Source: a virus
Lineage: Duplodnaviria > Heunggongvirae > Uroviricota > Caudoviricetes
Virus record (IMG/VR): IMGVR_UViG_3300043009_000101
DNA length: 64,000 bases
Strand: one strand, 5' to 3'
Of the stretch, positions 7,440 to 59,484 are shown piece after piece (positions within the stretch are counted from its first letter, which is position 1; every line of letters begins with the position of its first letter). Under the pieces are notes generated by a model. The model did no database searches. It was not told the origin of the DNA and saw only the letters and a list, made by a program, of their open reading frames with translations. The translations under genes were made by a program, and so were the position numbers.

Positions 7440-9250
7440 TTATAATACTGTTTTGGTTTAAATTATGCCTGTGCTAAATTGTTTGGAAGAAAAAATTTGC
7501 CTGAGATTAGCTATGCAAAGCAAAACAAGTTTGCTTTGCATAGCTAGAACTTGCCTTAGACAAAAACTTGCCTGAGATTAAAGCTCGACTTAGACAGAAA
7601 CTACAACAAGACAAGGAAGCGAGGTCAGGCATACGAACGGAGTGAGTATGACTAGGTTTCGCTTCCTTGTCTTTTATAAGAATATGGCTGACAAATACCC
7701 TGCTTGTGTATGCAAGATAAAAGAAAATTATCTGACTTTTCTAAGAAAAATGTGGCTTAACACACCACTTGAAAGCAAAGCTTTCAGGTGGTGTACTAAG
7801 GGTGCTGTAAAGTAGCACCCTTAGTGCTGCCACAAAGAGATAAAGTTGTTTCCTACCTAAAAGCTCAAATAGTGTATTTTCCGATTGCCCCTTATGTATG
7901 AGTAATACCAAAGGTATTACTCATACATAAGGTAAAGGCACATGCCTTTACCTTATGGCTGGGCAGCTTCTGCAAGCTCGGAAAATTAGCTAAATGAAGT
8001 TTTACGAAATAAAGCCCGCCAGTATAGGTGCTAGACAAAAATCAAGACAATTACCAATAAGTGCCCAGAAAAGAATAGGTATCCTTTTGGATACCTATTC
8101 TGTACGGTAAATACCATATGTATTTACCGTACCATATGGGGCAATGCTCAGAAATCGCTCTGGTGTGAAATATGGAAAGAAGATGCTTTATATAAAGCAT
8201 ATTTTGATACAAAGAGATGGTGCTTCGTGGCTTAACAGACCACTTGAAAGCTATGCTTTCAGGTGGTCTACTAAGGGTACTGCCTAGCCAGTACCCTTAG
8301 TAGTGCCACGCTAGTGCCAGCTTTTGTCTAGTACCTAGAAACTGGCTTGTGCAAAATACACTAGCTGCCTAAGAAAATCGCAGCAAGATAAAGCGAGCAC
8401 AAGATGAAACTCGTACAGGCAAGAAGCTAGCACCAGAAAAATATGCAACTAGACACTACCACCAAGATACCCAGCTTATGCCTGCAAGATAGAACTATTC
8501 CTTACAAAATGCTACGGCAAGGCAAAAGCTGGTGAAAACAGAAACTAAGACAAGATAAGAATTACAACAAGATAAGGGAGCGAGGTCAGGCATACGAACA
8601 TAGTGAGTATGGCTAGGTTTCGCTTCCTTATCTTGTATCAGGCACAATACGGACAATACCCAGTGTTCATGCATGCAAGATAGAAGAAAAATTATCTGAC
8701 TTGTCTAAGAAAAAATTAGATAAAATTGTTTTCAATCTAAAAGCTCAAATAGGCCACTTTCCGAGCTTGCAGAAGCTCGGAAAGTGTGCTAAATGAAGTT
8801 TTAGAAAATAAAGCCCGTCAGTATATGTGGAAAGGAAAAATCAAGACAATTACCCATAAGTATGTCTAGAAATCGTTCTAGTCCAAAATATTGAAAGAAG
8901 ATGCTTTACATAAAGCAGATTTCTGCATAAAGAGATGGTGCTAGTGCCAGCCTTTGTCTAGTACAGAGAACTAGCTTGTGCAAAATACACTAGCTGCCTA
9001 TAATATTGCAGCAAGAAAAAACTGGCACAAAATAAAAACTTGTACCAATAAAGAGCTAGCACCAGAAGAGAGCAAGGCTAGACAAGAACTACGACAAGGC
9101 AAGGAAGCGAAGTCCGATACGAAGTAGCGAGGTCTCGCTTCCTTGATTGCAGAAGAAAGCAAGGCTAGACAAAAATACCCAAGAAGATAAACTAATATAC
9201 TATATTCATAGTTGCAAAATATGATTAGAAAGAGTAAAATATACATAGCA
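7440..9250. repeat. 1.8-kb gene-free region of mosaic, segmentally duplicated non-coding modules and hairpins
   Basis: Modules ('gaaaattatctgacttttctaagaaaaa', 'ctaaaagctcaaatag', 'ctaaatgaagttttacgaaataaagcccgccagtatag', 'gtgccagcttttgtctagtac', hairpin caaggaagcgagg...cgcttccttg) recur at about 7600-8340, 8560-9150 and again at 13930-14480. Confidence 0.6.
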
Positions 9251-9300
9251 AATATAAAACAGTCAGGCAAATGCCTGACTGCTAGAAAAGGAGAGATATA

Positions 9301-9843
9301 ATGGCTGAAACAAACATTATCAACACAAAAGGTTTCCGCATGTCCTTCGATGTGCAGATTTCCGACAAACTTATTCAGGCATACCGTGAGAAAGGCTATG
9401 AGCTAAGACTGACAAGAGTGGTCGAGGCGGAGAGTTGTGCGGAGAGTGGGACGGAAGATGAAAATCAACTCATCTTTATGCTCAGCCTGACTGGTGATGG
9501 GTTTACTGCTGGCGGCTGCCTGTACTTCTCTGTGGACTATGTGCATGGATTGCTGCTTTGTAAATACAGCCTGAGTGAGCTGGAACCGTTCCTGTACTGC
9601 CGACTGGCTGAACTTGATGATTGCGGTGGCTGTGTGGATTTAATGGCTGGAAAGGGCATTCTGGTTTTGACAGAGGACTTGGCGGAACACATGCTGGAAC
9701 TGGCAATCTGGGATAAAAAGCCTGTTTCAGAAGATGCAGATATGTATGCAGACTTGGCTGCGAAAGCTATGGAAGTGCAAATAGAGTTGGAGCAGAATGT
9801 ATACCCGGAATTAGTCGGAAGAGTGCATTGGACGGATGATTAG
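9301..9843 (+). CDS. Hypothetical protein (GC-rich, about 48% GC)
   Basis: AAGGAG RBS; 180 aa; GC clearly above surroundings. Confidence 0.55.
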   Translation: MAETNIINTKGFRMSFDVQISDKLIQAYREKGYELRLTRVVEAESCAESGTEDENQLIFMLSLTGDGFTAGGCLYFSVDYVHGLLLCKYSLSELEPFLYCRLAELDDCGGCVDLMAGKGILVLTEDLAEHMLELAIWDKKPVSEDADMYADLAAKAMEVQIELEQNVYPELVGRVHWTDD

Positions 9844-9845
9844 CT

Positions 9846-10169
9846 ATGGCGATAACAGATAAATTGGATTTTACGGATATTTGCGAGTATCTGGAACAAT
9901 ACTACTATCACTTGGATATAGAGCAGAAATTTGTTGACGGTGAACTTCGTGCGGGCATTAAACTGCAAGTAAATGTTCACATGAACGATGGCTCAGAGCA
10001 AGTCGTTTCTTTACTAGACAGTGCTGAAAAAGACTGCATGGTTTCTTTAAAAGGAAAAAGAATGGAAAGCTGGGCTGGTGCAAAACCTGAGGCAAAACAT
10101 TATGCCCGCCTGAAAAGAAATGTAAACTACCCCTCTGCTAAAGCAAGGGTGCTTTCGGAACTGTTCTAG
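9846..10169 (+). CDS. Hypothetical protein, translationally coupled to the upstream gene
   Basis: Start 3 nt after the upstream stop; 107 aa. Confidence 0.5.
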   Translation: MAITDKLDFTDICEYLEQYYYHLDIEQKFVDGELRAGIKLQVNVHMNDGSEQVVSLLDSAEKDCMVSLKGKRMESWAGAKPEAKHYARLKRNVNYPSAKARVLSELF

Positions 10170-10174
10170 CAACA

Positions 10175-10480
10175 GTTTTGTAAGTTCTTCTGTTTTAACA
10201 AGGGACTCTTTCAATTCACAAATTTACCAGACTCAGTTATTAGAAATAGTAACTACGATAGCTAGGATGTAGACACCCTTGGTTGACACATCAGACCATT
10301 GCTCTGTCGTATACATTTAAGTTGGTAGAGGTAAGAAGAAGCCTGTGATGTATACATGTAAGCCTATCTTATCATTGTCGAGATGTAGTCAGGATGTTTT
10401 AATGGTAACAGTTAAAGCGGAATGCAGGACAACATTCAATATGCTTCGGCATATTGAATGTTGAATTACATGATTTAGTT
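10175..10480 (+). ncRNA. Candidate omega-RNA (OMEGA guide RNA) of the IscB
   Basis: About 300-nt ORF-free, structure-rich region directly 5' of iscB. It includes a perfect 14-bp hairpin with cUUCGg loop (caacattcaatatg-cttcgg-catattgaatgttg, 10430-10463). Position matches the known IscB-omegaRNA arrangement. Confidence 0.5.
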
Positions 10481-10499
10481 CATGAGAAAGGAAGCCTAT

Positions 10500-11834
10500 A
10501 TGGTTTATGTTTTAAATAAAGATGGTAAACCTTTAATGCCTACAAAACGGCATGGCAAAGTTAGACATCTTTTAAACAGCAAAAAAGCAAAAGTTGTAAG
10601 AAGAGAACCTTTTACAATTCAGTTGCTTTATGAGTCTACAAATTATACCCAAGAACTCACATTGGGTATTGACACAGGCAGTGGTACATTAGGTTCTGCT
10701 GTTTCAGATACAAATGGTAATATTGTTTATGCTGCACAAGTGCAAGTTAGAAACGATATTACTAGAAAAATGACAAGAAGAAGAAAATATCGAAGAACGA
10801 GAAGAAATAGAAAAACAAGATACCGTAAACCAAGATTTCTAAATAGAAAGAATAGTATTAAAACAGATAGATTCAGTCCAACAATGGTTAGTAAAATTCA
10901 TAGCCATACAAAAGAGATTGAATTTGTAAAAACAATACTCCCTATCAAAAATCTTGTATTAGAAACAGGTCAATTTGATACAGCTTTAATGAAAAACCCT
11001 GATTTAGCAGACCCGTCTGTAAAACCTTGGGGTTATCAGCAAGGACCAAATTATGGATATCAAAATACAAGAGCTCGTATTTTAGATAGAGATGAGCATA
11101 CTTGTCAGCATTGTCTTGGTAAATCTAAGGATACAAGCCTTGAAGTACACCATATTATTTTCAGAGCAGAAGGTGGTAGTGATGATGATGAGAATCTGAT
11201 TACATTATGCCATACTTGTCATACCCAATTACACAATGGAGAAATTGAACTTAAGCTCAAAGGTACTAAAAAAGGTAATTTAAGCTATGCTACTCAAATG
11301 AATAGTATTAGAAAACAATTACTTAGACAATACCCGGAAGCTAAGGAAACATTTGGCTATATTACAAAAGCAAATCGTTTCAACTTGAACATTGGTAAAG
11401 ACCATTACTTAGATGCTTGTGTAATAGCAAGTGGTGGTAAAGCCATTACTTTTAAAGCAGAAACACTGTACCTTAAAAAAGATGTTGCTAAAGGAGATTA
11501 TCAAAGAACAAATGGCAAAAGAAGTGAAAAGAAACTACCAAAAGGAAAAGTTCTAGGTTTTATAAAATTTGATAAGGTCAAATATAGAAACACAATTTAC
11601 TTTATTAAAGGAGTTCGTACACAAGGTACTTGTGAGTTAATGGATATTACAGGAAAAAAGATGAATTTTAGCTATTTGCCTTATGGCCTGAAAACTCCAA
11701 AGTTGCTTAACTGTACTAGAATACAACCTAGAAAGACAAGATTATGCATAGAAAGGAGGTTAGCTGCGATTCCCCCGCATCTAAAGATACGGTGGTTTCC
11801 TTGCGGCGATTCTCATGAAAATAATGAAATATAA
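10500..11834 (+). CDS. iscB: IscB, IS200/IS605-family RNA-guided nuclease (Cas9 ancestor)
   Basis: PLMP N-terminus (KPLMPT); RuvC-I IDTGSG; Arg-rich bridge helix RRRKYRRTRRNRKTRYRKPR; RuvC-II LVLETGQFD; HNH CQHC...LEVHHI...ENLITLCHTCH; RuvC-III DHYLDACVIA. AAAGGAAG RBS before ATG at 10500. Confidence 0.9.
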   Translation: MVYVLNKDGKPLMPTKRHGKVRHLLNSKKAKVVRREPFTIQLLYESTNYTQELTLGIDTGSGTLGSAVSDTNGNIVYAAQVQVRNDITRKMTRRRKYRRTRRNRKTRYRKPRFLNRKNSIKTDRFSPTMVSKIHSHTKEIEFVKTILPIKNLVLETGQFDTALMKNPDLADPSVKPWGYQQGPNYGYQNTRARILDRDEHTCQHCLGKSKDTSLEVHHIIFRAEGGSDDDENLITLCHTCHTQLHNGEIELKLKGTKKGNLSYATQMNSIRKQLLRQYPEAKETFGYITKANRFNLNIGKDHYLDACVIASGGKAITFKAETLYLKKDVAKGDYQRTNGKRSEKKLPKGKVLGFIKFDKVKYRNTIYFIKGVRTQGTCELMDITGKKMNFSYLPYGLKTPKLLNCTRIQPRKTRLCIERRLAAIPPHLKIRWFPCGDSHENNEI

Positions 11835-11874
11835 CTAAGCAGCCGCTCCGAAGGAGCGGCTGCTTTTGGCTGGT

Positions 11875-12650
11875 GCTAGATATTGTCTTGTGCTAGATAT
11901 TGTCTTGTGCATAATAGATACTGGTGCAAGATATAAACTCGTGCAAAACTAAAAACTTCGCCTGTATATTGCTAGGGCTGAAAAATACCCGATGAATGTG
12001 GCGGGAATAGAATTATTACCTATACAAAACAATAAAATTGCTCTGTGAAGATGGAAAGTTGGGCGAAGCAAAGTATAGTGCCAGCTAAGAACTACGGCAA
12101 ACAAGCAGTAAGGCAAGGCAGAAACTAATGCAGGCGGAAATTATGGTAAGATAAAAACTAATACAAGCAAGGGTGCGAGGTAACGAAATAAATTTCGTGC
12201 CTACGAAATTTATTATCTAGTGAAAGCTCTGCTTTCACTAGATAGAAAAGTTACCGAGGTCAGGCGAACGGAGTGAAGCCTAGGTTTCGCACCCTTGTAT
12301 TGTATAAAAAATACTAGTCTGATTCGTTGCGAATAAACATCTTGCCTGATTCCTTGCTAGTAGAGGAAATACAGACATCACAGAGTATAGATAATACGGA
12401 CACTGGCACACAGTAAGTGCTTGCACAAAAAGTAAAGGGCACAAGATTGTTTCTTGCACAAAGTAATGGAAAGCACAAGAAAATATCTTGCACAATACAA
12501 AGGGCGAATACTAGTGGCAATACCCGAATTTAGTGCTGAATTATACACTAATTATATAAATACTGATTTACATTTGTATATTGTTGTGCTAAAATAATGG
12601 CAGAAAGATATCTAGTAAAGATAAGAAAGAAAAACAAGAAAGATAAGGAG
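11875..12650. repeat. Non-coding repeat-rich region
   Basis: Tandem 'tgctagatattgtcttg' x2, composite hairpin caagggtgcgagg...(about 110 nt)...cctaggtttcgcacccttg (12166-12297), and reiterated 'ttgcacaa' motifs. Confidence 0.5.
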
Positions 12651-12658
12651 TAAAAAGT

Positions 12659-13799: not shown

Positions 13800-14600
13800 A
13801 TTTGTGGGCAAGCAAAAAGATTATATGTGCCTGAGTGAAAATGGTGCTAGATAATGGCTGGTGCTAGAAAGAAACTGGTGCAAGGAAGAAACTGGTACAG
13901 GCAGAAGCCAGTACAAGCAGAAATGCCCCGAAAAGAATAGGTATCCTTTTGGATTTGTCCCTCATACTAGGTAAATTGGGACAATTTACCTAGTATGAAA
14001 GCAAACCACGGGGTTTGCTTTCATCATAGGGGCAACCTATTCTGTACGGTAAATCCCTACTGGATTTACCGTACCATATGGGGCACTGGTACAAGCGGAA
14101 ACTGGTACAGGCAGAAACTGGTACAAGCAGAAACTGGTACAGGCAGAAACCAGTACAAGCAAAAACTTGTACAAGCAAGGAAGCGAAGTCCGTTGAGGGT
14201 GTATACCCGAAAACGAGGTCTCGCTTCCTTTTCTTGTTTAGAATAATATGAAAAATAAAAGAAAATTATACGACTTTTCTAAGAAAAAAGTAGATAAAGT
14301 TGTTCTTGTTCTAAAAGCTCAGAAAGTGAAGTTTCTGGACTTGCAGAAACTCGGAAAATGCGGTTTCTGAGCTTTTACGAAATAAAGCTCACCAGTATAT
14401 GTGCTGGGTGAAAAAATGAACAATTACCAATAACTATGCCTAGAAATCGCTCTAGTGTGAAATATTCGAAACAAGTGCTTTATATAAAGGTGATTTTGGC
14501 ACAAGATAGATACAGGCACAAGATAGATACAGGCACAAGATAGATACAGGCAAAGAAAGGCAGCCGTGCTATGCACGGCTGCCTTTTATTACAAATATAT
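13800..14600. repeat. Non-coding repeat region (copy of the 7.4-9.2 kb modules plus 16-bp and 18-bp tandem repeats)
   Basis: actggtacaRgcagaa x~5 (14086-14178); hairpin caaggaagcgaagtccg...cgaggtctcgcttcctt (14175-14232); gcacaagatagatacag x3 (14499-14552). Confidence 0.6.
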
Positions 14601-16852: not shown

Positions 16853-17259
16853 AGGGTGCTTTCCTTTCTAGTGTTGTTATATGTATATTATACTAAAGTA
16901 TAATGGAATTAGCAATAAAACTAGTGTTAGGGGGTTTAGTATCCACACGAAGCAATTCTATTGCTTTGTGTGGATAAAGAGGTCTAACAAGAAGCTACAT
17001 CAAGATGAATACGGGTGCAGATGAAAGGCTTCATCGAAAATACGGCGAAGAAAGAAGCTTCATCGAAAGACTAGGCGAATATAAAAGCTAGGAGAAAATA
17101 AAAAGCTTCATCAATATATCTGTATGGCAAGGCAGAATAATCAGCTATGCATAGCTGGGAATTTGGGGGGGCGGATAGAAAACTGCATCGGAATAGAAAA
17201 GCTTCGGTTAGATGGGTATTGGGGCAAGAAAAACGGGTGCAGCAGATAGGCAAACTTTT

Positions 17260-17399
17260 GCTATGCCAAGGTTAGCTATGCCAAGGTTAGCTATGCCAAG
17301 GTTAGCTATGCCAAGGTTAGCTATGCCAAGGTTAGCTATGCCAAGGTTAGCTATGCCAAGGTTAGCTATGCCAAGGTTAGCTATGCCAAGGTTAGCTAA
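17260..17399. repeat. Perfect tandem repeat, 15 bp x about 9.3 (gctatgccaaggtta)
   Basis: Directly visible; the + and - ORFs spanning it are repeat artefacts. Confidence 0.95.
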
Positions 17400-17405: not shown

Positions 17406-17455
17406 TGCAAGCACGAAGTCCGGTGAATGTAATGAACCGAGGTCTCGTGCTTGCT
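17406..17455. terminator. Composite hairpin element (family A) followed by a T-run
   Basis: caagcacgaagtccggtgaatgtaatgaaccgaggtctcgtgcttg, then ttttattaattttttttt. Identical core at 53719-53769. Confidence 0.5.
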
Positions 17456-17494: not shown

Positions 17495-17590
17495 CAAGAG
17501 CAAGAGCAAGAGCAAGAGCAAGAGCAAGAGCAAGAGCAAGAGCAAGAGCAAGAGCAAGAGCAAGAGCAAGAGCAAGAGCAAGAGCAAGAG
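17495..17590. repeat. Hexanucleotide microsatellite (CAAGAG)16, preceded by T9 G6
   Basis: Directly visible; T9 at 17464-17472, G6 at 17473-17478; a G7 tract at 17165-17171. Confidence 0.95.
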
Positions 17591-17926
17591 CGTATTAGAT
17601 GTGAATTCTCTGCAAGATATCTTCATAGAAAGTAAAAAAAAATCGGAAATTTACTTTTCCGATTTAGAAAGGTGGTGGCTCAACAAGGCAGAAAGTGAGC
17701 TTAACGGGTTTTAACTACCTAAAACTTAGCATAGTTATTCCTTCTTTTAGGCCTTCTGAACATCTTTTATACAGTTTTTCCTTTCAAAAATGTGCTGTTA
17801 GCAGAAAATCTATCAAAAGCAAATCTAATATTAGTATATCTAATATTATATAAGAAACCCCAAGATACACAATATGCTATTAAAACAAAAGGAATGTTCT
17901 AAAACATTCCTTTCATTCTAAGTAAA

Positions 17927-23900: not shown

Positions 23901-25780
23901 ATAAATAATAGACTACTTAAAAACCTAACAGAACCTATACTCCTATAGATTGTACTACCATAAAGAGAAGTATCCCTTGCATTAACCAAACTTAACACAG
24001 AAGAATCCCCATCACTGGTTTTGTACATAGTAGTAGGCATAGCTGTAGTTGTATTTGCTTTATACGCACTCATACCCCAGCAGAAATAGACTTTGGAATC
24101 AGCAGCATAAGAATTTGCAAGTAAAATATCAAAACTCATAACCTGTCTGCCAGAACTTGTTATCGTGCTATTTAAACCATAATACTTATACTTAATAGCT
24201 ACAACTTTCTTACTACTCAAATCAATACAATAACCTTGTACTCTGCTTAGACCCTCCTGTGTTTGTGAAGTCAAATCAGTGTCTGGCAAAAACAGAGTGT
24301 ATTCAGATGCACCTGCATATCTCACATATAACTCCATATTATAGTCACTTGTAGTCTGCTTTGTATGAAAAACTGTTTCTCTAACGCCGTTTGTTGTAGG
24401 CATACTTTCGGAAATATATGCGGCTGTGATAGTGTAATCGCTATCTGTCAAAATATGCTGCGTGGTATCCGTAGCATAAACAGTGTCCATATAAGTTTCC
24501 ACATCAATACTCGTACCAGTATAACTAAATAAAAGAGATGTCTTATTAACTGCGGAAGCTTCATTTTGCTGCACAGCAACATTTGCTTCTACATTCACAG
24601 CATTTGCATCTTGTGCTAAAGTCAAAGTTTTATTTGCAGACAAAATATGGCTACTTGCTGTTACTGTAAAGGTATTACTGCATATATCCTCCATTGTATA
24701 TGTATCATATCCCCAATAAGCACCTCGAATTTTACCAGTAAACGTTATTGTACCACTTGTTGTGGTAGTGACTGCAAAAATACCTCTAAATAAATCACCA
24801 GAATTGTTACAACTATTAATTTTTATTGTAACAGAACCATTTGTCGGCGTATACTTTACTTTATTGTAATAATAAACAATATTACTATCACTGCTTGTCA
24901 AAGTAACTTCCGTAGCATAATTTTCATAGGCACTAGCATCTGTTATACCCCGAACCCAACCAGAAGAGCAACTACCGTTCACTATTACATTAGATTGTCT
25001 TGGCGTTGTCATATATGCATAATTTAAAACACCATGTGTACCGTTTAAATTTGTAGATATAGCATTCTCATGTTGTATAATCTGAAAAACACTTTTTCCT
25101 ATATAATCTCCTTCTGGTAAATAATCTGTGGTGGAAACACTTTCCGTAGTAATCTTTCCTGTGTAGCTGCGTTTAGAACGAGATACTACTAAATCCACAC
25201 TTTGAGTGACAATTACTTTATCATTTACAAGCATATCTACTTTATAAGTGTAAGTTTTGTCTTTTAAATACTGCACATAATTTTGCATCTGACTAGACGC
25301 AAAATTTAAAGATAAAGCAATTGTACCCTCTGCTGCACTGCCGGATGAATACGACTTTTTAGATGCCTCTAAACAATATCTGTCTGTTGTTCCAACTAAA
25401 CTTCCTTTAAAATTCGTATCTGTTAAAGGTGTAACATCAAAGAAAGCGGTATCGCCATAATCTGTAAGATTCATACCTGTGTATGTTTCCGATGCGGAAT
25501 ATACTCTAAAGGCTAATTTTCCAGCGGATAGGCTACTGCTTAAACTAGAATTGCTATAGTCTACCACTAGGGAGTATGCATCAGATGTATTTACAGATGT
25601 TGTTACGCTACTGGTATAAGTGGAGTTCTGATACCAGTTTACTTTCATCTGCCAACCATTGCTGCCACTCACATAGCTATTTGCTGTGCTTGCTTCTGCT
25701 GTTGCGGAACTGCCTGAATGCAACGAACCTAGCAAAAGTGGTATGCCTACAAGCAAAATCTTTTTTAATTGCTTTCGCAT
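17927..25780 (-). pseudogene. Giant (about 2620 aa) repeat-containing surface protein gene split into 3 ORFs by two frameshifts at simple-sequence tracts
   Basis: ORFs 23486..25780 (signal peptide plus N-terminal domain), 21291..23516 and 17927..21286 align collinearly with the intact paralogue 25941..31103. Breaks fall at (AT)5 23507-23516 and G6 21330-21335. Confidence 0.7.
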
Positions 25781-25940
25781 AACTATTCCTCCTATTCATA
25801 CAATATACAAAATTATTCTGTTTTAAGTATATTGTCATATCATTTCATTCATTTGGCAAATATTACGGAAAAAATATACTATAAAACATCAAACTAAAAC
25901 AAAAGGAATGCTATAAAGCATTCCTTTCTTCTTTAACAAA

Positions 25941-48649: not shown

Positions 48650-49639
48650 CTAGATGAGATTCTCGTCTAGAAACTGCATCAATTCTTTTGCTACTGCATA
48701 CACAACATCTACAGTAACAGCATTGCCAAACTGCTTATATGCCTGAGTGTCGGATACAACTTGCTGCCAATCACTTGGGAAACCTTGCAGCTTTCTCGCT
48801 TCATTTGGTGTCAGTCTGCGAATATTCGTTTTAGTTTCATCACAATACCGTTCATAATTCACATTATCCGTATAATAATTGTCTTGGCTTGCTCTGTGCA
48901 TTTTGTGCATAGTTGCAACTAAGGTGTTGCAAATCTTATTATCTATTGTTGGCTCAGCCTTAAAGTTTTTCGTTCCCTCGCTCATAAGTGCTTTGATAAG
49001 TACTTTGCTGACAAAATACTTGGCAGGAACATCTTCATCAAGCAAATCTTGTGCAGTCAACTGCAATGGCTGGGTCTGTGGCTGTGGGAAAGCAAACTGT
49101 GTATCTTTAAAAGCATCTTTTCGCAAAGCTACAATAAATACCCGCTTCCTTCTTTGTGGAATGCCAAAATCTGCTGTATTCAGAACTTGATAATTTACTG
49201 CATACCCGCATTCTTCGAGTTCGTCTTTGATTCTTTGGAATGTCTTGCCTTTGTCGTGTGTAACAAGGTTCTTTACATTTTCCAAAACAACTGCTTTGGG
49301 ATGATGCTTGAGTATAATGCTCTTAATAATAAAGAACAATGCCCCTCTGCCTTTTTCATCCTCAAAACCTTGCCTTTTGCCAATACTAGAAAATGGCTGG
49401 CATGGAAATCCGCCAACTAAAATGTCGTGAGGCGGAATTTCATCTAAATGCTCTGTAATATCTCCTTCTACAATGTCTGTGCGAATGTTGGCTCGAAATG
49501 TCTGGCATGCATATTTGTCTATGTCATTGGACCAAACCATATCAAAGCCTGCATTGGAAAAGGCTAAATCAAATCCGCCAATGCCTGCAAAAAGGCTCAC
49601 TGTTTTGTATTTGTAAGTTGTATGTGTAATTCTTTCCAT
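48650..49639 (-). CDS. DNA (cytosine-5)-methyltransferase (M subunit of the adjacent DpnII-like endonuclease)
   Basis: FAGIGGF, GGFPCQPFS, ENV motifs; immediately upstream of the endonuclease on the same strand. Confidence 0.9.
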   Translation of the reverse strand: MERITHTTYKYKTVSLFAGIGGFDLAFSNAGFDMVWSNDIDKYACQTFRANIRTDIVEGDITEHLDEIPPHDILVGGFPCQPFSSIGKRQGFEDEKGRGALFFIIKSIILKHHPKAVVLENVKNLVTHDKGKTFQRIKDELEECGYAVNYQVLNTADFGIPQRRKRVFIVALRKDAFKDTQFAFPQPQTQPLQLTAQDLLDEDVPAKYFVSKVLIKALMSEGTKNFKAEPTIDNKICNTLVATMHKMHRASQDNYYTDNVNYERYCDETKTNIRRLTPNEARKLQGFPSDWQQVVSDTQAYKQFGNAVTVDVVYAVAKELMQFLDENLI

Positions 49640-51316: not shown

Positions 51317-51472
51317 GGTTTGGGTTAGTTCTCCTTTGCTTAGATAATATAGATATAGTTTATCACGAGCAATAGGAAATCTGGGACGGAACGGAGAGTT
51401 TGGTGCAGATAGGTTTGGGGCAAGATAGGGTTGGGTGCAGATAGAACTAGGGCAAGATAGAGCTGAAACAAG

Positions 51473-51582
51473 AAAAGGCACGAGGCTTGGTCGGACGGGA
51501 TAAATCCCTTGAACAAGGGATTTATCAAAATAGGGAAGCATATGCTTCCCTATTTTAGTCAGTCCGAGGTTTCGTGCCTTTA
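51473..51582. repeat. Composite hairpin element (family A) with two nested inner hairpins
   Basis: aaaaggcacgagg...gggataaatccctt-gaac-aagggatttatc...tagggaagca-tatgcttcccta...ccgaggtttcgtgccttt. Confidence 0.55.
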
Positions 51583-51584
51583 AT

Positions 51585-52313
51585 CTATTTTTCTTTCTTA
51601 AAATTCTTAGATATTACTGCATTAAATTGCTGCGGGTCGAACCAATAGCAGCCATTACAAACCTTGGTGTGTTCATCACCAAAAATATAGCTCTCGGAGT
51701 ACCCTAGCTGCTTAGCATCATATCGTATGCCTGATTCTCTGCATTCTTTACAATGTTGTCGCTTAGCTATATTTACTGCTTTGCTAAGTACTTGGAAATC
51801 TTCCAATTTTTGTTCGTTTGGATTCTCGTTTTCTCTATCATCATATCTACCGTTCTTATGGTCTATTTCCATACCGTTACTGGATATTATATCTAATACT
51901 GCACAGTGCTTGCCTTTAAGTGCTTTCTGCACATCTGTAGAAATGGTACGGGCAGATTTTGTTCGATTCTTATTGAAGCCATCTAATTTTACAGAAGCTA
52001 CTCTTGGGCCTTTCTTCGTTCTTGTAATTAAATATCGTTTACCTAGATAAGAAACAGAATCTCTAGCCCAAGTACAACCATTGGTTGTTTCAAAACTAGA
52101 ATGTATTGTTTTGAGATATTCTATACTGAGCTTCTTGCCAATACCATACTCCACATCAGATAATATTTCAAAAATCTGGCCAAGATATGCAGAAGTTAGG
52201 TGTATATCTTGCAAATTTGTCTGCACATAGGTAATTAGAGCTTGTTTATCTTGTTGCTGAAAAAGAAGTTCAAGTTGTGCAATCTGTGTTTCGTTTAAGT
52301 CCTTCATATGCAA
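51585..52313 (-). CDS. HNH-family endonuclease (candidate type II restriction endonuclease)
   Basis: EIDHKNGRYDD...NPNEQ...HCKEC (HNH/His-Me core) plus CxxC pairs; 6 nt downstream of the C5-methyltransferase gene. Confidence 0.65.
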   Translation of the reverse strand: MHMKDLNETQIAQLELLFQQQDKQALITYVQTNLQDIHLTSAYLGQIFEILSDVEYGIGKKLSIEYLKTIHSSFETTNGCTWARDSVSYLGKRYLITRTKKGPRVASVKLDGFNKNRTKSARTISTDVQKALKGKHCAVLDIISSNGMEIDHKNGRYDDRENENPNEQKLEDFQVLSKAVNIAKRQHCKECRESGIRYDAKQLGYSESYIFGDEHTKVCNGCYWFDPQQFNAVISKNFKKEK

Positions 52314-52319
52314 ATTTCC

Positions 52320-53516
52320 CTATCCCACATATTCGAAAGTAAACAATTTCTCAAAAATACGAACCATTACAGGCACAACAATAGAATTACCAAACTGTTT
52401 GCGGGCTTTGGAATCAGATTGCACAGATAAAATCTTCGTAATATTTTCCTCTGAAACACCCATTAGTCTGCCGAATTCTTTTACAGATAATTTACGGACA
52501 TTGCCTGTGGCATCAATTACAGCAGTTACAGTATTGTGGTTCTCTTTAATCGTAGGAACAATACCGTTGATGCTCACTATCTTGCTGGAATCGAACTTAC
52601 TCTTCATATAATTGCCTAAGGAAACAATACTATTAAACCGTTCTAGTTGGTTTATGAAATCTGTATCTTTATACTTTTCTGCACAGCTTTTAGCATACTC
52701 GTTGTGAATATATAATCTGGATTCAGGCTGAATGTCTGTATCTAAATAATCCCGCAAATATTTTGTAAGCGAAATCGGTTCAGGAAAAGTGTACGGAGTT
52801 GGATGATTTAGAATACTCACCATATAGCACCGTTCCCTATTCTGTGGTATATTTCCATATTCTGCTGCATTCAGAACCTGATACGAATTTGTATACCCGA
52901 TTGATTCCAAATAAGCACACCAATCATCAAAATCTGCTTTGTTTCGCTTGGAAATGATTTGCTTTACATTTTCCATAAACAGAATCTGCGGAAGTTCTTT
53001 CCGTGAAGCAATCAATTCGTTGAACAACCTTTCAATTTCCCAAAGCAAACCGCTCCTCGTACCACTGCCTTTTTTCATGCCTCGCAAATTCCCACTCATA
53101 GACAAATCTACACAAGGAAAACTGTATGTGAGCATGTAAGTATAAGTTTCTGTGTTGGTGATACCCAGTTCTTCTGCCTGTATTCTTGTGATACTGCCAA
53201 GGTTGTGTGTGGCTGCAAATTCGTTGTAAACTTTTCTGCACCAAGGTTCTTTTTTCTTCAACAATGCTTCTTTGCTTAATGCCTGTTTGTCGTCTATGGT
53301 GATTTGCAAGTTGGCAAGATAGTTCACCACTTCTTCGAAACTGAGATTGGCAGATGCATCTGGTATGACTTCGGTATGCACGGCTGCATACGATGTGTTG
53401 GCTGCTACATTCCATTCAGATATGCGGTAATGCTCGTAATCTATATCTAATTGGTCTAGTGCCATTGCTTGGCTGCCATAGCCTGCAAATAGTTCTATTA
53501 ATCTTACTTTCTTCAT
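52320..53516 (-). CDS. DNA (cytosine-5)-methyltransferase with variant motif I
   Basis: LFAGYGS (motif I), SFPCVDLS (PC), FMENV; 398 aa. Confidence 0.85.
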   Translation of the reverse strand: MKKVRLIELFAGYGSQAMALDQLDIDYEHYRISEWNVAANTSYAAVHTEVIPDASANLSFEEVVNYLANLQITIDDKQALSKEALLKKKEPWCRKVYNEFAATHNLGSITRIQAEELGITNTETYTYMLTYSFPCVDLSMSGNLRGMKKGSGTRSGLLWEIERLFNELIASRKELPQILFMENVKQIISKRNKADFDDWCAYLESIGYTNSYQVLNAAEYGNIPQNRERCYMVSILNHPTPYTFPEPISLTKYLRDYLDTDIQPESRLYIHNEYAKSCAEKYKDTDFINQLERFNSIVSLGNYMKSKFDSSKIVSINGIVPTIKENHNTVTAVIDATGNVRKLSVKEFGRLMGVSEENITKILSVQSDSKARKQFGNSIVVPVMVRIFEKLFTFEYVG

Positions 53517-53584: not shown

Positions 53585-53715
53585 GGTGCAGATAGTACTG
53601 ACACAAGATAGTACTGCCACAAGATAGTACTGCCACAAGATAGTACTGCCACAAGATAGTACTGCCACAAGATAGTACTGCCACAAGATAGTACTGCCAC
53701 AAGATAGTACTGCCA
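53585..53715. repeat. Tandem repeat, 18 bp x about 7 (ccacaagatagtactg...)
   Basis: Directly visible; translated artefact ORFs cover it. Confidence 0.95.
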
Positions 53716-53718
53716 CAA

Positions 53719-53769
53719 GAAAAGGCACGAAGTCCGGTGAATGTAATGAACCGAGGTCTCGTGCCTTTT
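53719..53769 (-). terminator. Family-A hairpin acting as a terminator for the upstream 3-gene array
   Basis: aaaaggcacgaagtccggtgaatgtaatgaaccgaggtctcgtgcctttt; on the minus strand the stem is followed by TTTTCTTG. Confidence 0.55.
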
Positions 53770-53781
53770 ACTTACTGAATA

Positions 53782-54159
53782 TTATTTTGTTGTTTTTACC
53801 TTTACGGTATAGGAATTCAGAACAGTATTTCCAAACTCGTCTGTGGATACATCTTCGAACTGGTACTCATCGAAAAAATCTAAATCGGATTGGTAAGATA
53901 ATTCCACGGAATCGTCTTCTGTACGATAGAATACCGCAAGAATATCTGGATAGGCGGAAGCATCATCTGGCACAATAATTTTAATCTGGGCATAATGTCC
54001 GTCAGCAAATTTTGCTTCGTAAAGTTCTTCCTCATACCGATGCATGCCGTATTTATTATAGATTTGCTCGCCTGTGCTGTTGAGTAAGTTCTTTACTGAC
54101 TTAGTTTCGGCGGGTGTGAGTTTGATTGTTGATGTGTATTTATGTGCATATTTAGGCAT
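53782..54159 (-). CDS. Family-X (subfamily 2) protein, MPKYAHKYTSTIKLT...NSYTVKVKTTK
   Basis: First of three tandem paralogues. Confidence 0.65.
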   Translation of the reverse strand: MPKYAHKYTSTIKLTPAETKSVKNLLNSTGEQIYNKYGMHRYEEELYEAKFADGHYAQIKIIVPDDASAYPDILAVFYRTEDDSVELSYQSDLDFFDEYQFEDVSTDEFGNTVLNSYTVKVKTTK

Positions 54160-54168
54160 TGGGACGGT

Positions 54169-54582: not shown

Positions 54583-54587
54583 AGTTT

Positions 54588-54989: not shown

Positions 54990-55061
54990 GGTAAGAATCG
55001 CCTCGCTTTCACTTTATACAATAGATATAGAAAATTTGGGTGAGTGGGAGTGAAAAAAAAA

Positions 55062-55502: not shown

Positions 55503-55639
55503 GATGGCTCCTTTCTGGGTTGTATGTAATTATATTGGTTTCTTGATTGTAAAGAAAGTATAGCACGAAAAGAGAGGTGTGGTAAAGGTGGAAAAGGAAA
55601 CAAAAAAGGAACAGCTGTTGGCTGTTCCTTTTTTTGTAA

Positions 55640-56419
55640 TTATTCTGCTATTCCAATCTGGAAATGGAAAGGTTCCTTAGAATCCTCTTTTACTTTTGTA
55701 AATTCATAATCACCCAAGATATTTGCAGAAGGATAGTCCTCGGAAGCCATATGATATGCAACCTGTTCCACTGCGTCCACATTGTCGTCTACATAGTATA
55801 GCAACTGTATTTGTACATAAGGATAATATTCAGCACGATTTGCTTCAATAGAAATTCTTAAATACCGATAGCCAGTAGAATCTATTACTATATTTTCTTG
55901 CCACAATGTTTTTGTTTCTTCTGTATTATCTGAATTACCTGAGAAACAAATACTTGTAGGTGTTTTAAGTAATAAATTTAGCTTTTGTACAACAGTTTTT
56001 GGCATACAAAATTTATTATCTCCAGAATAGTAGAAAGCATAGAAAACAGGCAAGTTGAAAGTGTTGCAAACATAACCCTTTGTATTTGGACTAATCCATC
56101 CTTTACAATTATCATCTAAGATTAAAGTATAGGTGTCTTGTGTATAAGGGTCTTTTACTACATATTTTCCAAGAAAATCTTCATGGGGTGTACTCATATC
56201 CAACATATTGGAATTTTCGTCATACAATACGGCTGCATAAGCAACATATTCATCTTCACCCGGGTCATAAGGTGTTACAACTACTGTAAAACCCGTTGGG
56301 AATTGCCAGCTTTTAGCCACAAGAGGTGCATATTTAGTGAAATCACAGGCTTCCATCCATTCTATATGCAGCCTGTGCATTCTTGGATTTAAATGTAATG
56401 TTTTTTGGTAATTTTGCAT
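55640..56419 (-). CDS. Family-X (subfamily 3) two-domain protein, MQNYQKTLHLNP...
   Basis: N-terminal domain ...LGKYVVKDPYTQDTYTLILDDN; second domain begins ...MPKTVVQKLNLLLKTP. Confidence 0.7.
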   Translation of the reverse strand: MQNYQKTLHLNPRMHRLHIEWMEACDFTKYAPLVAKSWQFPTGFTVVVTPYDPGEDEYVAYAAVLYDENSNMLDMSTPHEDFLGKYVVKDPYTQDTYTLILDDNCKGWISPNTKGYVCNTFNLPVFYAFYYSGDNKFCMPKTVVQKLNLLLKTPTSICFSGNSDNTEETKTLWQENIVIDSTGYRYLRISIEANRAEYYPYVQIQLLYYVDDNVDAVEQVAYHMASEDYPSANILGDYEFTKVKEDSKEPFHFQIGIAE

Positions 56420-56442
56420 AGTGTATTTTCTCCTTTATTTAA

Positions 56443-57195
56443 TTAGTCTGTTGTTCCGATATAGAAATTATAGAAATCTGGTAAGCAATAGCCTTGCTCA
56501 TTTGCAAGTTCATATGCCCCAAGTATATTTGCAGGTTTATTTTCTGTGGTTTTATGTGCTGTAGCTTTATGTGTACCAAATTGGCCTTTATCACCATCTG
56601 GGCCATCTGGTGTCAACAACTGAAGTAATACATAGGGATAATTCTCGTTACGGTCTGCTTCAATAGTCATTCTCAGATACCAATACCCGTCAGCATCAAC
56701 GGTTACATTCTTTTCCCACAAAATTTTATTTTTACTAGTTAGTTTACCGTGGGCTTCAACTGGTGTTTGCAGTAGGATATTCAACTTGTTTACTTCACTC
56801 TTTGGCATATACAGCTGCTCAAACAAACCAGTAGTGTCCCCTTTCAAAGCATAACCTTCGGTGTTGAATGTAATCCAATCCTTACAATTATTATCAAGAA
56901 TTAAGGTATAAACATCTTGTGTATACGGATTTGTAACTGTATATTTACCAAGATAATCTGTATGTGTTTCACTCATATTGATGAGATTGGAATTAGCATC
57001 CCAAAGATATGCGACAAAACCTACATTATTATCATTTGTTCCAAAAACACTTACTTGCATTATCAGACCTGTTGGAAACTGGTAACTTTGTACAAAATAA
57101 GAGGCTACATATTCTACATAATCTTGGCTTAGTGCATATAAAGCAGAAAGCACATCTGTTGGTTTTAAATGTAATGTTTTTTGATATTTTTGCAT
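56443..57195 (-). CDS. Family-X (subfamily 3) two-domain protein, MQKYQKTLHLKP...
   Basis: AAAGGAG RBS; LYMPKSEVNKLNILLQTPVEAHGKL second domain. Confidence 0.7.
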   Translation of the reverse strand: MQKYQKTLHLKPTDVLSALYALSQDYVEYVASYFVQSYQFPTGLIMQVSVFGTNDNNVGFVAYLWDANSNLINMSETHTDYLGKYTVTNPYTQDVYTLILDNNCKDWITFNTEGYALKGDTTGLFEQLYMPKSEVNKLNILLQTPVEAHGKLTSKNKILWEKNVTVDADGYWYLRMTIEADRNENYPYVLLQLLTPDGPDGDKGQFGTHKATAHKTTENKPANILGAYELANEQGYCLPDFYNFYIGTTD

Positions 57196-57217
57196 AAAAA
57201 GTTTCTCCTTTATTTAA

Positions 57218-57937
57218 TTATTCTGTTGTTCCGATATAGAAATCTGTAGGTAAATCCACATCAGATATATTCATAAGTTCATATGCACCAAGAATATTTG
57301 CGGGTTTATTCTCGGTTGCTTTATTTGTACCAACTTGGTACTCATCGCCATCGAGTGTCAGCACCTGAAGTTGTACATAAGGATAATACTCTGTACTGTC
57401 TGCTTCAATAGAGATTCTCATATACCAATATCCTTCATTGTCAACAGTTACATTTCTTTTCCACAAAGTTTTAGATTTACTCATTAGTTTTCCGTGAGCT
57501 TCAACTGGTGTTTGCAACAAGATATTTAGTTTCTGTACTTCACTCTTTGGCATATACAGATGCTTGCACCAATCTTTGTTCCATTTTAAAACATATCCCG
57601 TTGTGTTTGGAGTAATCCAACCCTTACAATTATCATCAAGAATCAAGGTATAAACATCTTGTGTATAAGGATTTGTAACTGTATATTTACCGAGATAATC
57701 TGTATGTGCATCGCTCATATTGATGAGATTTGAATTAGCATCCCAAAGATATGCCACAAAGCCTACATTATTATCATCAGCACTAAACACACTTACCTGC
57801 ATTATGAGACCTGTGGGAAACTGATAGCTTTGTGCTAAGTCAGGAGCTGCCGTTAAAGTAGATTCCCTTATGTCTTTATTCAAATCGTATAGCACATTGA
57901 GTGGGCTTAAATGCAATGTCTTTTGATATTTTTGCAT
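57218..57937 (-). CDS. Family-X (subfamily 3) two-domain protein, MQKYQKTLHLSP...
   Basis: Same architecture, about 80% identical to its neighbours. Confidence 0.7.
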   Translation of the reverse strand: MQKYQKTLHLSPLNVLYDLNKDIRESTLTAAPDLAQSYQFPTGLIMQVSVFSADDNNVGFVAYLWDANSNLINMSDAHTDYLGKYTVTNPYTQDVYTLILDDNCKGWITPNTTGYVLKWNKDWCKHLYMPKSEVQKLNILLQTPVEAHGKLMSKSKTLWKRNVTVDNEGYWYMRISIEADSTEYYPYVQLQVLTLDGDEYQVGTNKATENKPANILGAYELMNISDVDLPTDFYIGTTE

Positions 57938-57954
57938 AAAAAGTTTATTCTTTC

Positions 57955-58686
57955 TTACTTTTCAGTTGTTCCGATATAGAAATCTGTTAGTAAATCAGAC
58001 TCATAGTTTTCACTAAATTCATATACACCAAGAATATTTGCAGGTTTATTCTCAGTTGCTTTATGTACACCAACTTGAGCTAATAAATCATCCGCACATA
58101 GCACTTGAAGTTGTACATAAGGATAATCCTCTGTAATATCTGCTTCAATAGACATAATCATATAATAAAATCCTTCCATATCAATAGGTACATACCTTTC
58201 CCACAAAGTTTTATTTGTATGAGTTAGTTTACCATGAGCTTCAACTGGTGTTTGTAGCAATATGTTCAGTCTGTGTACTTCACTCTTGGGCATATATAGC
58301 TGTGTACACATAGTTGCATGGAAAGCATTATAGTTCACAACATACCCTTCTGTGTTTGTAGTAATCCACCCCTTGCAATTATCATCAAGAATCAAGGTAT
58401 AAACATCTTGTGTATAAGGATTTGTAACTGTATATTTACCAAGATACTCTGTATGAACATCACTCATATTGATGAGATTGGAATTAGCATCCCAAAGATA
58501 TGCTACGAAACCCAAGGTAGTGTTATCAGAACTACACACACTTACTTGCAATATAAGACCTGTTGGAAACTGATAACTTTGTACTAAATGTCTTGCTGCA
58601 TCCGCAGCATTATCAATTTGGCCATTATTTAAAACAAAGAGTACTCCGCGGGGATTTAAATGTAATGTTTTTTGGTAAGTTTGCAT
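57955..58686 (-). CDS. Family-X (subfamily 3) two-domain protein (start at MQTYQKTLHLNP)
   Basis: GGAGAAAGGAA RBS before ATG at 58686 (the track ORF starts 24 codons earlier). Confidence 0.7.
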   Translation of the reverse strand: MQTYQKTLHLNPRGVLFVLNNGQIDNAADAARHLVQSYQFPTGLILQVSVCSSDNTTLGFVAYLWDANSNLINMSDVHTEYLGKYTVTNPYTQDVYTLILDDNCKGWITTNTEGYVVNYNAFHATMCTQLYMPKSEVHRLNILLQTPVEAHGKLTHTNKTLWERYVPIDMEGFYYMIMSIEADITEDYPYVQLQVLCADDLLAQVGVHKATENKPANILGVYEFSENYESDLLTDFYIGTTEK

Positions 58687-58949
58687 ATTATATTCCTTTC
58701 TCCATTTATTATCATTTATTATATTGAGGAATGCTTGTACCATTAGATACTGATACACACCTCTTAAATTATAAGAAATTCCTACTAAGATAATTGAAAA
58801 AATATCTAAGTGCTGTATTCATAATACTAGATAAAAACTGTTGCAAGCAAATTGGCTGCAAGTACAGGCTGCACAATTTCGGAATACCCGTTGCATTCAT
58901 GCTTACATATTCTTTTGGTGTGCCTACACTCATTTCTAGAAATAGGTCA

Positions 58950-59445
58950 GACAGCTACATGAAGTGAATCTGAGGGCAAATTCTAAGCGATGTGAATAAA
59001 TACTTGGTGCGGAAATGTTGTTCGTTAGAGAGCGATTATGAGGGCGATAGGGCAAGGTGAAAATATAGCAGCTAGACTGAGAAAATACCCTCGGAAATTA
59101 GAGGGAAAAGTTAGGCATACCTAGGGCTGGTGGCTGCATAAAGTGAATCTGAGAGCGAAGTATGATGTGGGTGAATAAATACTAATGCAAGAAAATTTAT
59201 TCATTAGAATGCGATTGTGTGGGTGATAGAGTGATGTGCTATGAAAGAAAATCAGTCTTTGACTGGGAAGTTACCTGTGAAATAAGAGGGAAAATATAGG
59301 TGGACATAGGGCTGTCGGCTCCATAAAGTGATTGTGCGGGCAAAGTATGAGGTAGGTGAACAAATACTAATGCAAGAAAAGTTCTTCGTTAGAATGCGAT
59401 TGTGTGGCTGATAGGGTGGACTGAAAATTCACTATCACAAGATGA
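58950..59445. repeat. Tandem repeat, about 180 bp x 3 (about 80% identity), upstream of the subfamily-3 array
   Basis: Units begin at about 58956, 59138 and 59316 (cataaagtga.t.tg.g.gc.aagtatgatgtgggtgaataaatactaatgcaagaaaa.tt.ttc.ttagaatgcgattgtgtgg.tgatag.gtg). Confidence 0.8.
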
Positions 59446-59451
59446 AAACTA

Positions 59452-59484
59452 TACAAAGAAAAGGCACGAGATACCGTGCCTTTA
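59452..59484 (-). terminator. Rho-independent terminator for the gene at 59488..59850
   Basis: aaggcacg-agatac-cgtgcctt, with a TTTTCTTTG tail on the minus strand. Confidence 0.6.

Follow-up and report, generated by a model that had tools for sequence, protein, structure and literature searches.

Introduction

The promoter-early plus stem-loop (PeSL) cassettes of T4-type phages are repeated intergenic elements that flank orphan genes and mediate gene shuffling (PMC2839356, PMC4122927). Huge phages are known to carry many perfect intergenic hairpins, some of which are predicted Rho-independent terminators while the larger ones have no assigned role (bioRxiv 10.1101/572362; methods in PMC7162821). 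Here we describe a family of composite intergenic hairpins in a 64,000-nt stretch of DNA (the window) taken from IMG/VR record IMGVR_UViG_3300043009_000101, an uncultured virus of the Caudoviricetes. The window DNA is low in GC (32-46%), and its proteins recur on contigs of up to 576,898 bp, which indicates a megaphage-sized source genome (~577 kb); together with ~8 kb gained upstream, the window gives a view of ~72 kb of that genome. The family comprises at least ten copies that lie on one strand and share a short imperfect helix, and we tentatively propose that they act as two-way terminator or insulator stem-loops between accessory gene cassettes.

A family of ten oriented hairpins

An earlier, sequence-only reading of the window had listed eight hairpin copies with common internal cores. 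All eight occur where it placed them, give or take a few bases, each of them a strong hairpin, and the common cores are borne out as the frame CGARGTC ... AGGTYTCG, on the + strand throughout. When matches to a regular expression (CGARG[TC] ... [AG]GGTYTCG) are extended outwards along the stem, the eight copies are recovered, all on the + strand, with a perfect outer stem of 7-12 bp that is limited in copy 2 by one G.T pair. A stricter scan, which demanded a perfect stem of 6 bp or more followed by RGTC, 3-130 nt, AGGTY and the complementary stem, gave seven matches on the + strand, none on the minus strand, and none in each of 30 Markov-simulated windows. The RNA minimum free energies of the listed copies range from -21.7 to -63.8 kcal/mol (z-scores -3.7 to -10), with 0 of 200 shuffles folding as well. 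Folding beats shuffles on both strands, over which the energies run from about -20 to -64 kcal/mol; the + strand fold is the more stable by 1-11 kcal/mol because three positions are of the G.U type on that strand.

The sequence-only reading had also called for a covariance-model search. Such a model, built from six simple copies (which themselves score 61-71 bits) and run over the window with filters off, yielded two further members, at 63687-63718 and 63924-63955, and a truncated 3' half. The family therefore totals ten copies, all on the + strand and all in non-coding DNA. No hairpin has a match in Rfam 15 at the gathering or E-value threshold, and the same covariance model found nothing comparable over ~380 kb of other low-GC phage loci. 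The family is confirmed as real, well defined, lineage-specific and far beyond chance.

The eight listed copies fall into four lower-stem classes, aaggaagcg (copies 1, 2, 3 and 5), aaaggcacg (7 and 8), gcaagcacg (6) and caagggtgcg (4); D1 and D2, the two new members, contribute a fifth, and all five classes stay complementary. The cores are of type A (copies 1, 2 and 4), B (3, 5, 6 and 8), C (7) or minimal D (D1 and D2). Copy 1 (7608-7673, + strand; 62.8 bits) joins the t1 lower stem, aagacaaggaagcg / cgcttccttgtctt, to an A-type core, as does its tandem paralogue copy 2 (8570-8633, + strand; 60.9 bits), whose t1 stem contains the G.T pair. The t1 stem recurs with a B-type core in copy 3 (9100-9145, + strand; tip ATACGAAGTAG), 155 nt upstream of a + strand cassette containing an IscB-like gene, and in copy 5 (14177-14230, + strand), which has a GGGT/ACCC tip hairpin and lies between convergent genes. 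Copy 6 (17407-17454, + strand; 67.4 bits) carries the t3 stem gcaagcacg and a B1 core between two tandem arrays, one of 15 nt x 9.3 on the left and one of 6 nt x 16 on the right, and copy 8 (53720-53769, + strand; 71 bits) joins the t2 stem to a B1 core matching that of copy 6. Copies 4 and 7 are composite because each holds one twin-hairpin unit, a structure described below. Copy 4 (12168-12297, + strand; 26.2 bits for its 3' part) consists of the t4 stem caagggtg, CGAGGT, the unit at 12180-12254, a second CGAGGT and a short A-type core, and copy 7 (51474-51581, + strand; 29.6 bits) of the t2 stem aaaggcacg and a variant frame, CGAGGCT/GGTTTCG, around the unit at 51491-51567. The minimal member D1 (63687-63718, + strand; 20.9 bits) reads GCAGACGAGC-AGTC-TTT-AGGTC-GCTCGTCTGC, and D2 (63924-63955, + strand; 20.9 bits) is its tandem duplicate with a period of 237 nt; at the edge of this tandem repeat, a truncated 3' half of a D-type copy (TAGGTCGCTCGGCTGC, 63553-63568, + strand), read directly from the sequence, stands without its 5' arm. 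Tips range from 3 to ~90 nt, some of them branched twin hairpins, and the outer ends read CAAGG.../...CCTTG, AAAGG.../...CCTTT or GCAGA.../...TCTGC.

The conserved core of these otherwise diverse elements is a short imperfect helix in which 5'-RGTC stands opposite 5'-GGTY, paired R.Y, G.T, T.G and C-G, followed by a bulged A. The R.Y pair is never Watson-Crick, being G.T in the A- and C-type cores and A.C in the B- and D-type cores. The sequence common to all copies is RGTC/AGGTY, with CG added in eight of the ten, ~10 nt altogether. The CGA/TCG pairs, invariant in the other eight copies, are altered on both sides in D1 and D2, which keep AGTC/AGGTC and the bulged A around a 3-nt tip. Copy 7 departs from the core, in that CGAGGCT swaps the last two pairs and the fold lacks the bulge. 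The non-Watson-Crick pairs are kept across the ten copies while the lower stems differ at seven positions on both arms. Since the imperfection is kept in ten copies and the other hairpins of this genome are essentially perfect, the constraint would fall on the imperfection itself, and the imperfect helix looks to be selected.

Gene context and a proposed terminator and insulator role

We propose that the hairpins are two-way terminator or insulator stem-loops of an array-plus-hairpin cassette, with the imperfect helix as a recognition or cleavage determinant; this is the reading we favour, although we would place it somewhat short of probable. Each cassette combines a short array of tandem repeats, a strong stem-loop with a lower stem in the order A-tract, GC stem and T-tract, and T-rich outer sides. 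When formed in RNA from either strand, the hairpin would halt or attenuate transcription, and the stop would shield adjacent gene cassettes from each other. The imperfect helix, 5'-RGUC opposite 5'-GGUY with its bulged A, could be a second signal, most plausibly one that determines recognition or cleavage by a phage or host factor. The family would have grown by duplication of whole cassettes and by the inner part being exchanged between, or inserted into, different lower stems, of which the copies themselves preserve some traces, and the complementarity of the arms would be upheld by selection for hairpin stability, by arm-to-arm template switching, or by both.

Several features are consistent with this proposal. 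A stable, GC-containing stem-loop followed by a T-rich tract, as in an intrinsic terminator, is found in the family; of the 12 nt in each tail, 2-9 are T on the + side and 4-7 on the minus side, and most copies are T-rich on both outer sides. Copy 7 lies 3 nt past the stop codon of a minus-strand IceA-like gene and copy 8 lies 12 nt past that of the minus-strand gene 53782-54159. The suggestion of the sequence-only reading that the copies can act as terminators is thus plausible, given the strong stems, the T-rich flanks on both outward sides and the two copies just past stop codons; its observation that several copies sit directly 3' of genes applies to copies 7 and 8, the remaining copies being 134-1689 nt from the nearest gene boundary listed. 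The lower stems also share the A-tract/stem/T-tract style of the ordinary hairpins of this genome, many of which are of the AAAGG...CCTTT type and placed shortly after genes, the usual look of two-way intrinsic terminators.

The copies bracket groups of accessory genes. Copies 3 and 4 enclose two open reading frames (ORF180 and ORF107), a HEARO RNA and an IscB-like ORF with RRXRR and HNH domains; copies 4 and 5 enclose the orphan ORF375; copies 5 and 6 enclose minus-strand genes for Pnk and an RNA ligase; and copies 7 and 8 enclose a minus-strand IceA-like nuclease and a C5 methylase. Read on the minus strand, the order hairpin, array, gene start is found at copy 1 (gene start 7410), copy 6 (16852), copy 7, copy 8 (53516) and D1 (63552). 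If the proposal is right, a megaphage partitions a plastic region rich in accessory genes with a dedicated family of two-way stem-loop insulators in which a conserved recognition module is a second signal, and the 10-nt imperfect helix offers a handle for finding the factor that reads the module. If the hairpins are plain terminators, the finding is an ordinary one.

A number of points weigh against the proposal. A simple terminator scan flagged none of the family members, because its loop limit of 3-8 nt leaves them out, and the case for termination is drawn from the sequence. The + strand tail of copy 3 is poor (2 T in 12), and several copies lie 330-550 nt from the nearest gene end. The copies keep one orientation while the flanking genes run both ways, which is unexpected for a purely transcriptional signal. 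No sigma-70-like promoter was detected in the arrays or beside the hairpins, although a phage-specific promoter type is possible, and no candidate binding protein was found among the ~40 window ORFs scanned. The view, finally, is limited to ~72 kb of the ~577-kb genome, with assemblies that are ~100% identical and represent one population.

An alternative that also gives the imperfect helix a part to play is that the hairpins are RNA processing or protein-binding sites, at which the helix and its bulged A guide an RNase III-type enzyme or a phage RNA-binding protein and thereby set the 3' ends and stability of mRNAs. The RNase III sites of T7 and of Bacillus phage SP82 recur as intergenic hairpins about two helical turns long that contain a conserved irregular segment, and all are oriented with transcription. 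Judged by description, the hairpins studied here resemble them in helix length and irregularity, having a helix of ~17-25 bp with a conserved irregular middle and variable sequence elsewhere; they differ in orientation, which is fixed to the genome with flanking genes running both ways, whereas an RNA signal should follow the direction of transcription. The irregular positions are all of the wobble type on the + strand and form an internal loop on the minus strand, but by our own estimate this + strand preference is statistically weak, as it concerns two common positions and one that depends on core type. A Firmicutes-like host is suggested by the strong Shine-Dalgarno sites of the window genes and by the RNA ligase, whose best match among cultured phages is to a Bacillus jumbo phage (36% identity). 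In PMC4838370, which cites Panganiban and Whiteley 1983, the RNase III of Bacillus subtilis is presented as an enzyme of narrow specificity with known targets in phage SP82, a precedent for such a role. With the lack of any Rfam match for the hairpins also counting against it, we consider RNA processing an unlikely explanation of the family.

Apparent modular exchange and possible origins of the stem covariation

The sequence-only reading had noted that the outer stems differ between copies while remaining perfectly complementary, and had concluded from these compensatory changes that the structure is under selection. The complementarity itself stands. In a trimmed alignment of the lower stem and frame, with tips replaced by GAAA, 89.7% of cells pair, versus 41-52% with the 3' partner shifted by 1-3 columns; both sides are altered in nine pairs, and none of 500 shuffles matches the observed covariation score. 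The stems are not specific to single copies, however, there being four classes in eight copies, nor is every stem perfect, as seen from the G.T pair of copy 2. The conclusion as to selection does not follow: the five stem classes of the whole family represent few independent events and so do not prove selection on an RNA structure, and the same or similar stems occur in hairpins that have no core (at 59460, 14556 and 2023). Core exchange and arm-to-arm copying, set out below, bear on it in the same way.

These core-less hairpins were found among the simple hairpins of the window. That at 59460-59483 (+ strand) matches copies 7 and 8 in its lower stem and 5' flank (acaaaga-AAAGGCACG ... CGTGCCTTT) and encloses a loop of only 6 nt. 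Copies 7 and 8 also have their distal stem in common with the perfect hairpin at 14556-14586 (+ strand; AAAGGCAGCCGTGC/GCACGGCTGCCTTT), which comes after a 17-nt array and is separated by 29 nt from the stop codon of the minus-strand Pnk gene. A third, at 2023-2046, has a stem the same as or similar to family stems.

Comparison of the copies suggests that stems and interiors have been recombined. Copies 6 and 8 share one and the same 40-nt sequence (GCACG...CGTGC), longer than the 34 nt first noted, and their distal stems, arrays and downstream flanks are non-alignable, in agreement with the earlier observation of a common core on different outer stems. Of the three paralogous modules opened by copies 1, 2 and 5 (M1, M2 and M3), M1 and M2 are homologous to M3 through the flanks and t1 stem, yet they have A-type cores and M3 a B-type core. 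Copies 7 and 8 and the hairpin at 59460 have a common flank and stem with three different interiors. Similarity over the whole length is limited to the pairs 1/2, 6/8 and D1/D2. Such differences argue for histories that are partly separate for the inner part and the lower stem, and cores appear to move between stems. Template switching is known to create hairpins and to mimic compensatory substitutions (PMC8794818), and the comparison of copy 1 with copy 4 shows a symmetric gain of 4 bp on both arms of the inner stem (ATAC/GTAT). One-step symmetric changes of this kind are an outcome of template switching, so that stem covariation is weak evidence for a selected RNA fold. A lesson of method may be drawn: perfect stem covariation among repeat copies can come from modular exchange and arm-to-arm copying, and alone it is no proof of a structured RNA.

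Taken further, the same observations raise the possibility that the family is a functionless mutational by-product, in which replication or repair makes and homogenises palindromes and tandem repeats through template switching and slippage and the hairpins are one such lineage copied with its flanks. The window holds 49 perfect hairpins (stem of at least 9 bp, loop of at most 12 nt) where 4.25 are expected, a ~12-fold excess, with 40 of the 49 outside ORFs, and many tandem arrays occupy the same non-coding regions. The two-arm gain between copies 1 and 4 and the paired arm changes in homologous twin-hairpin units would be readily accounted for, as would the covariation itself, given the known ability of template switching to imitate it. 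On the other hand, arm-to-arm copying should remove mismatches, yet R.Y, G.T, T.G and the bulged A persist while nearly all other stems are perfect, and the elements are placed at gene boundaries and not at random. A purely mutational origin is therefore, in our judgement, distinctly unlikely.

Tandem arrays, paralogous modules and twin-hairpin units

On the + strand each copy is directly preceded by a tandem array, degenerate or perfect. The abutting arrays have a period of 15, 16, 17 or 29 nt, share a CAAG/AGATA motif and end in ...ACAAG. The array at 53590-53720 (+ strand; 16 nt x 8.2), for example, lies between copy 8 and the start of the C5 methylase gene at 53516, and others are read at 7548-7602, 14085-14177, 17260-17398, 51398-51460, 63584-63668 and 63750-63907 (all + strand). 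Further intergenic arrays are found at 11873-11910, 13858-13896, 14498-14556 and 17495-17591. Overall, the intergenic arrays of the window have periods of 6, 15, 16, 17 or 29 nt and up to 16 copies, and most abut hairpins and contain a CAAG/AGATA-like motif; the array at 17257-17398 differs by one unit between assemblies. Arrays of the kind found in type III toxin-antitoxin systems, in which a terminator and a toxin gene come after the repeats, were considered and ruled out, as the repeats are too short and no consistent same-strand gene follows.

Copies 1, 2 and 5 are each the first element of a paralogous non-coding module of ~450 nt. The modules M1, M2 and M3, at 7590-8420, 8550-9100 and 14150-14560, have a mean column identity of 60%, and each holds a long imperfect hairpin, e.g. 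that at 8736-8805. M1 and M2 have a conserved minus-strand promoter-like site, TTGTCT-18-TATACT (8050-8021 and 8849-8820), which points at the family hairpin; the modules may be genes for non-coding RNA on the minus strand, with their end at the hairpin. Hidden coding in the non-coding blocks was ruled out, since no long ORF appears under any single stop-codon reassignment.

The window also contains seven twin-hairpin units of ~80 nt with a common architecture, a closing stem of 4-6 bp around two abutting perfect hairpins of ~12-20 bp, and with sequences mostly unrelated to each other. They are located at 7751-7834, 7884-7964, 8063-8143, 8225-8311, 13924-14085 (with a nested unit at 13954-14035), 12180-12254 and 51491-51567, the last two within copies 4 and 7. 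Four of the units are clean insertions in M1 relative to M2 and M3, and one is nested in another unit. Two pairs (7751-7834/8225-8311 and 8063-8143/13924-14085) consist of homologues that occupy non-homologous sites, with paired changes in their arms. No consistent target-site duplication was found at the twin-hairpin insertions; the units may be either very small mobile elements or the result of template switching. In the same region, the stretch 7890-7957 can form two mutually exclusive perfect hairpins, at 7890-7932 (20-bp stem) and 7926-7957 (15-bp stem), that share the segment CATAAGG, an arrangement that suits an attenuator-like alternative structure or may be left over from template switching.

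Such insertions invite the idea that the hairpins are folded single-stranded DNA sites, either attC-like sites of cassette recombination or IS200-like landing sites for small insertions at hairpin tips, where RGTC/AGGTY would be read by a recombinase or an HUH-type nuclease. This idea would make sense of the one genomic orientation of the ten copies at eight independent loci, with flanking genes running both ways (two-sided binomial P ~0.008), and of the bracketing of accessory cassettes. The elements resemble an attC site in their architecture, being paired at the ends and irregular in the middle, with a bulged base and a terminal structure that varies from 3 to 90 nt; the resemblance is architectural only, and the bulge is absent from the fold of copy 7. 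CGARGT/CKAGGT flank each tip, the twin-hairpin unit in copy 4 is bordered on either side by a duplicated CGAGGT, the ~80-nt insertions occur elsewhere in the genome as well as within copies 4 and 7 and another hairpin, and cores are gained or lost between homologous cassettes. Yet the window ORFs scanned revealed no integrase, Y1/HUH transposase or RAYT, attC R boxes (RYYYAAC/GTTRRRY) are absent, and the other twin-hairpin insertions have no consistent target-site duplication. The D-type core, at 12 nt, is too small for a mobile unit; a crossover inside the frame would yield non-complementary arms, of which none is seen; and cassette content is alike in all strains compared, their assemblies being ~100% identical. 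We regard a DNA site of this kind as very unlikely. The most elaborate form of the idea, an integron-like megaphage cassette system devoid of integron core sequences, in which oriented folded single-stranded DNA sites delimit exchangeable genes (IscB, RNA repair, restriction-modification), the tips accept small hairpin insertions and RGTC/AGGTY is a putative recombinase or nuclease site, is more doubtful again, and we mention it as a speculation of low probability.

Cassette genes, source genome and distribution

The cassette between copies 3 and 4 contains a HEARO (omega-RNA) match at 10122-10392 (+ strand), scoring 82.3 bits against a gathering score of 83 (E ~1e-16), directly upstream of a 450-aa RRXRR + HNH ORF at 10482-11834 (+ strand) that has its own terminator at 11837-11865. 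The RNA and the ORF together resemble an IscB-like RNA-guided nuclease unit carried by a megaphage; no adjoining TnpA was found. The family hairpins were ruled out as the ends of this element, given the start of the HEARO RNA at 10122 and the unit terminator at 11837-11865. The IceA-like (NlaIII-type) nuclease and C5 cytosine methylase at 51585-53516 (minus strand) form a restriction-modification-like pair. Further C5 methylase genes lie at 40135-41343 and 48650-49639, bringing the C5 DNA methylases of the window to three; other window genes encode a NAD-dependent DNA ligase, an RNase T-like exonuclease, the RRXRR-HNH (IscB-like) protein and an Rnl1-type RNA ligase adjoining a polynucleotide kinase/HD protein. 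No recombinase, transposase or candidate binding protein was recognised among the ~40 window ORFs scanned against Pfam, 20 of which were also scanned against PHROGs. No tRNA genes were found in the window, nor any Rfam match at the gathering score.

Several repetitive features lie outside the family. Very large proteins (1119, 741, 764 and 1720 aa) encoded at 17927-31103 (minus strand) contain repeats with a period of 222-228 nt, roughly 75 residues. Four tandem paralogous genes of ~240-267 aa occupy 55640-58758 (minus strand); the one scanned (55640-56419) has no Pfam or PHROGs match, and homologues of the group among 5.8 billion proteins are from the same phage only. Between the start of the minus-strand gene at 58758 and the core-less hairpin at 59460, three tandem non-coding repeats of ~180-185 nt (58943-59430) are 68-83% identical and have no Rfam match.

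No relative of the hairpins was found outside this phage, and a search for paralogues returned local ones only. The B-type core pattern, CGAAGTCCG N CGAGGTCTCG, was scanned in viral, metagenome and genome collections, the genome pattern being slightly tighter; its matches (19 viral, at least 120 metagenome and 78 genome) are all attributable to chance, almost all being GC-rich, with a flanking stem that never exceeds 4 bp among the matches listed. The A-type core pattern had no match in viral contigs. The orphan ORF has no homologue and the RNA ligase none in viral contigs; the nearest relatives of the ligase (48-54% amino-acid identity) and 19 RRXRR-HNH loci lack the element by both regular expression and covariance model. 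Cultured phages gave no megablast or blastn match, and the extra ~8 kb upstream of the window holds no family copy. The other assemblies retrieved (JGI 3300035506 and 3300043086; Logan SRR11793927/8) are 99.97-100% identical to the window and show no variation in cassette content. The element is so far specific to one phage population. Independent short-read assemblies break at the hairpin/array blocks (~12232, 12301, 13953 and 63917-64131), and contigs stop within the 29-nt array at ~63.9-64.1 kb; metagenome assemblies of this phage probably collapse or under-represent such blocks.

Comparison with known systems

Known RNA motifs and mobile repeats offer partial likenesses. K-turn, loop E, hammerhead and twister motifs were ruled out by inspection of the frame together with the lack of Rfam matches. 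The sequence-only reading had regarded the copies as REP/BOX/MITE-like elements or structured RNA; a place among REP, BOX or MITE elements is not supported. In common with repetitive extragenic palindromes (REP, and the BIMEs composed of them) and the end hairpins of IS200/IS605 elements, they are short imperfect intergenic palindromes with a bulged base and a strand bias, and an IscB-like gene with a HEARO RNA lies nearby. The comparison with REPs does not hold further, as there is no GTAG head and no RAYT or TnpA among the ~40 ORFs scanned, and ~10 nt are common to the copies here whereas REPs are similar over their whole length; nor does that with IS200/IS605, since the IscB unit (~10122-11866) has its own ends, which exclude these hairpins. 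The flanks, moreover, are inverted (acaag ... cttgt) and not direct, there is no target-site duplication, and overall identity between copies is low, all unlike a miniature inverted-repeat transposable element (MITE). Integron attC sites likewise keep structure more than sequence, pair at their ends around an irregular middle, have an extrahelical base and a terminal structure of very different lengths, and bound cassettes in a uniform orientation. The hairpins differ from them in lacking R''/R' core sequences, in having their conserved bases in the middle of the element and not at its ends, and in bounding cassette genes that run in both directions; no integron integrase was found among the window ORFs scanned.

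Within phages, the intergenic palindromes of huge phages have been described as each unique within its genome, in contrast to the ten copies found here, which form a family through their common module, upstream arrays and recurring stems. PeSL cassettes are the closest concept: they too are repeated composite intergenic elements around a terminator stem-loop, concentrated at accessory and orphan genes, and they have been proposed as transcription insulators and as recombination points for modular shuffling, with chimeras arising by exchange and one reported crossover within the stem-loop's loop. The analogy is incomplete, and to that extent tells against our proposal, in that the sigma-70-like promoter of a PeSL is not detectable beside the hairpins. 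Tandem 15-29-nt arrays stand where PeSLs have an AT-rich region and promoter, conservation falls on an imperfect helix within the stem in contrast to the GGGG...CCCC stem of PeSLs, and orientation is set by the genome and not by the downstream gene; the assemblies compared do not differ in cassette content. If the proposed role as two-way terminators or insulators is correct, the idea of regulatory cassettes, which comes mainly from T4-type phages, extends to huge phages. The hairpin family is best read as an unusual variant of the known intergenic terminator and regulatory cassettes of phages, not as a new class of RNA.

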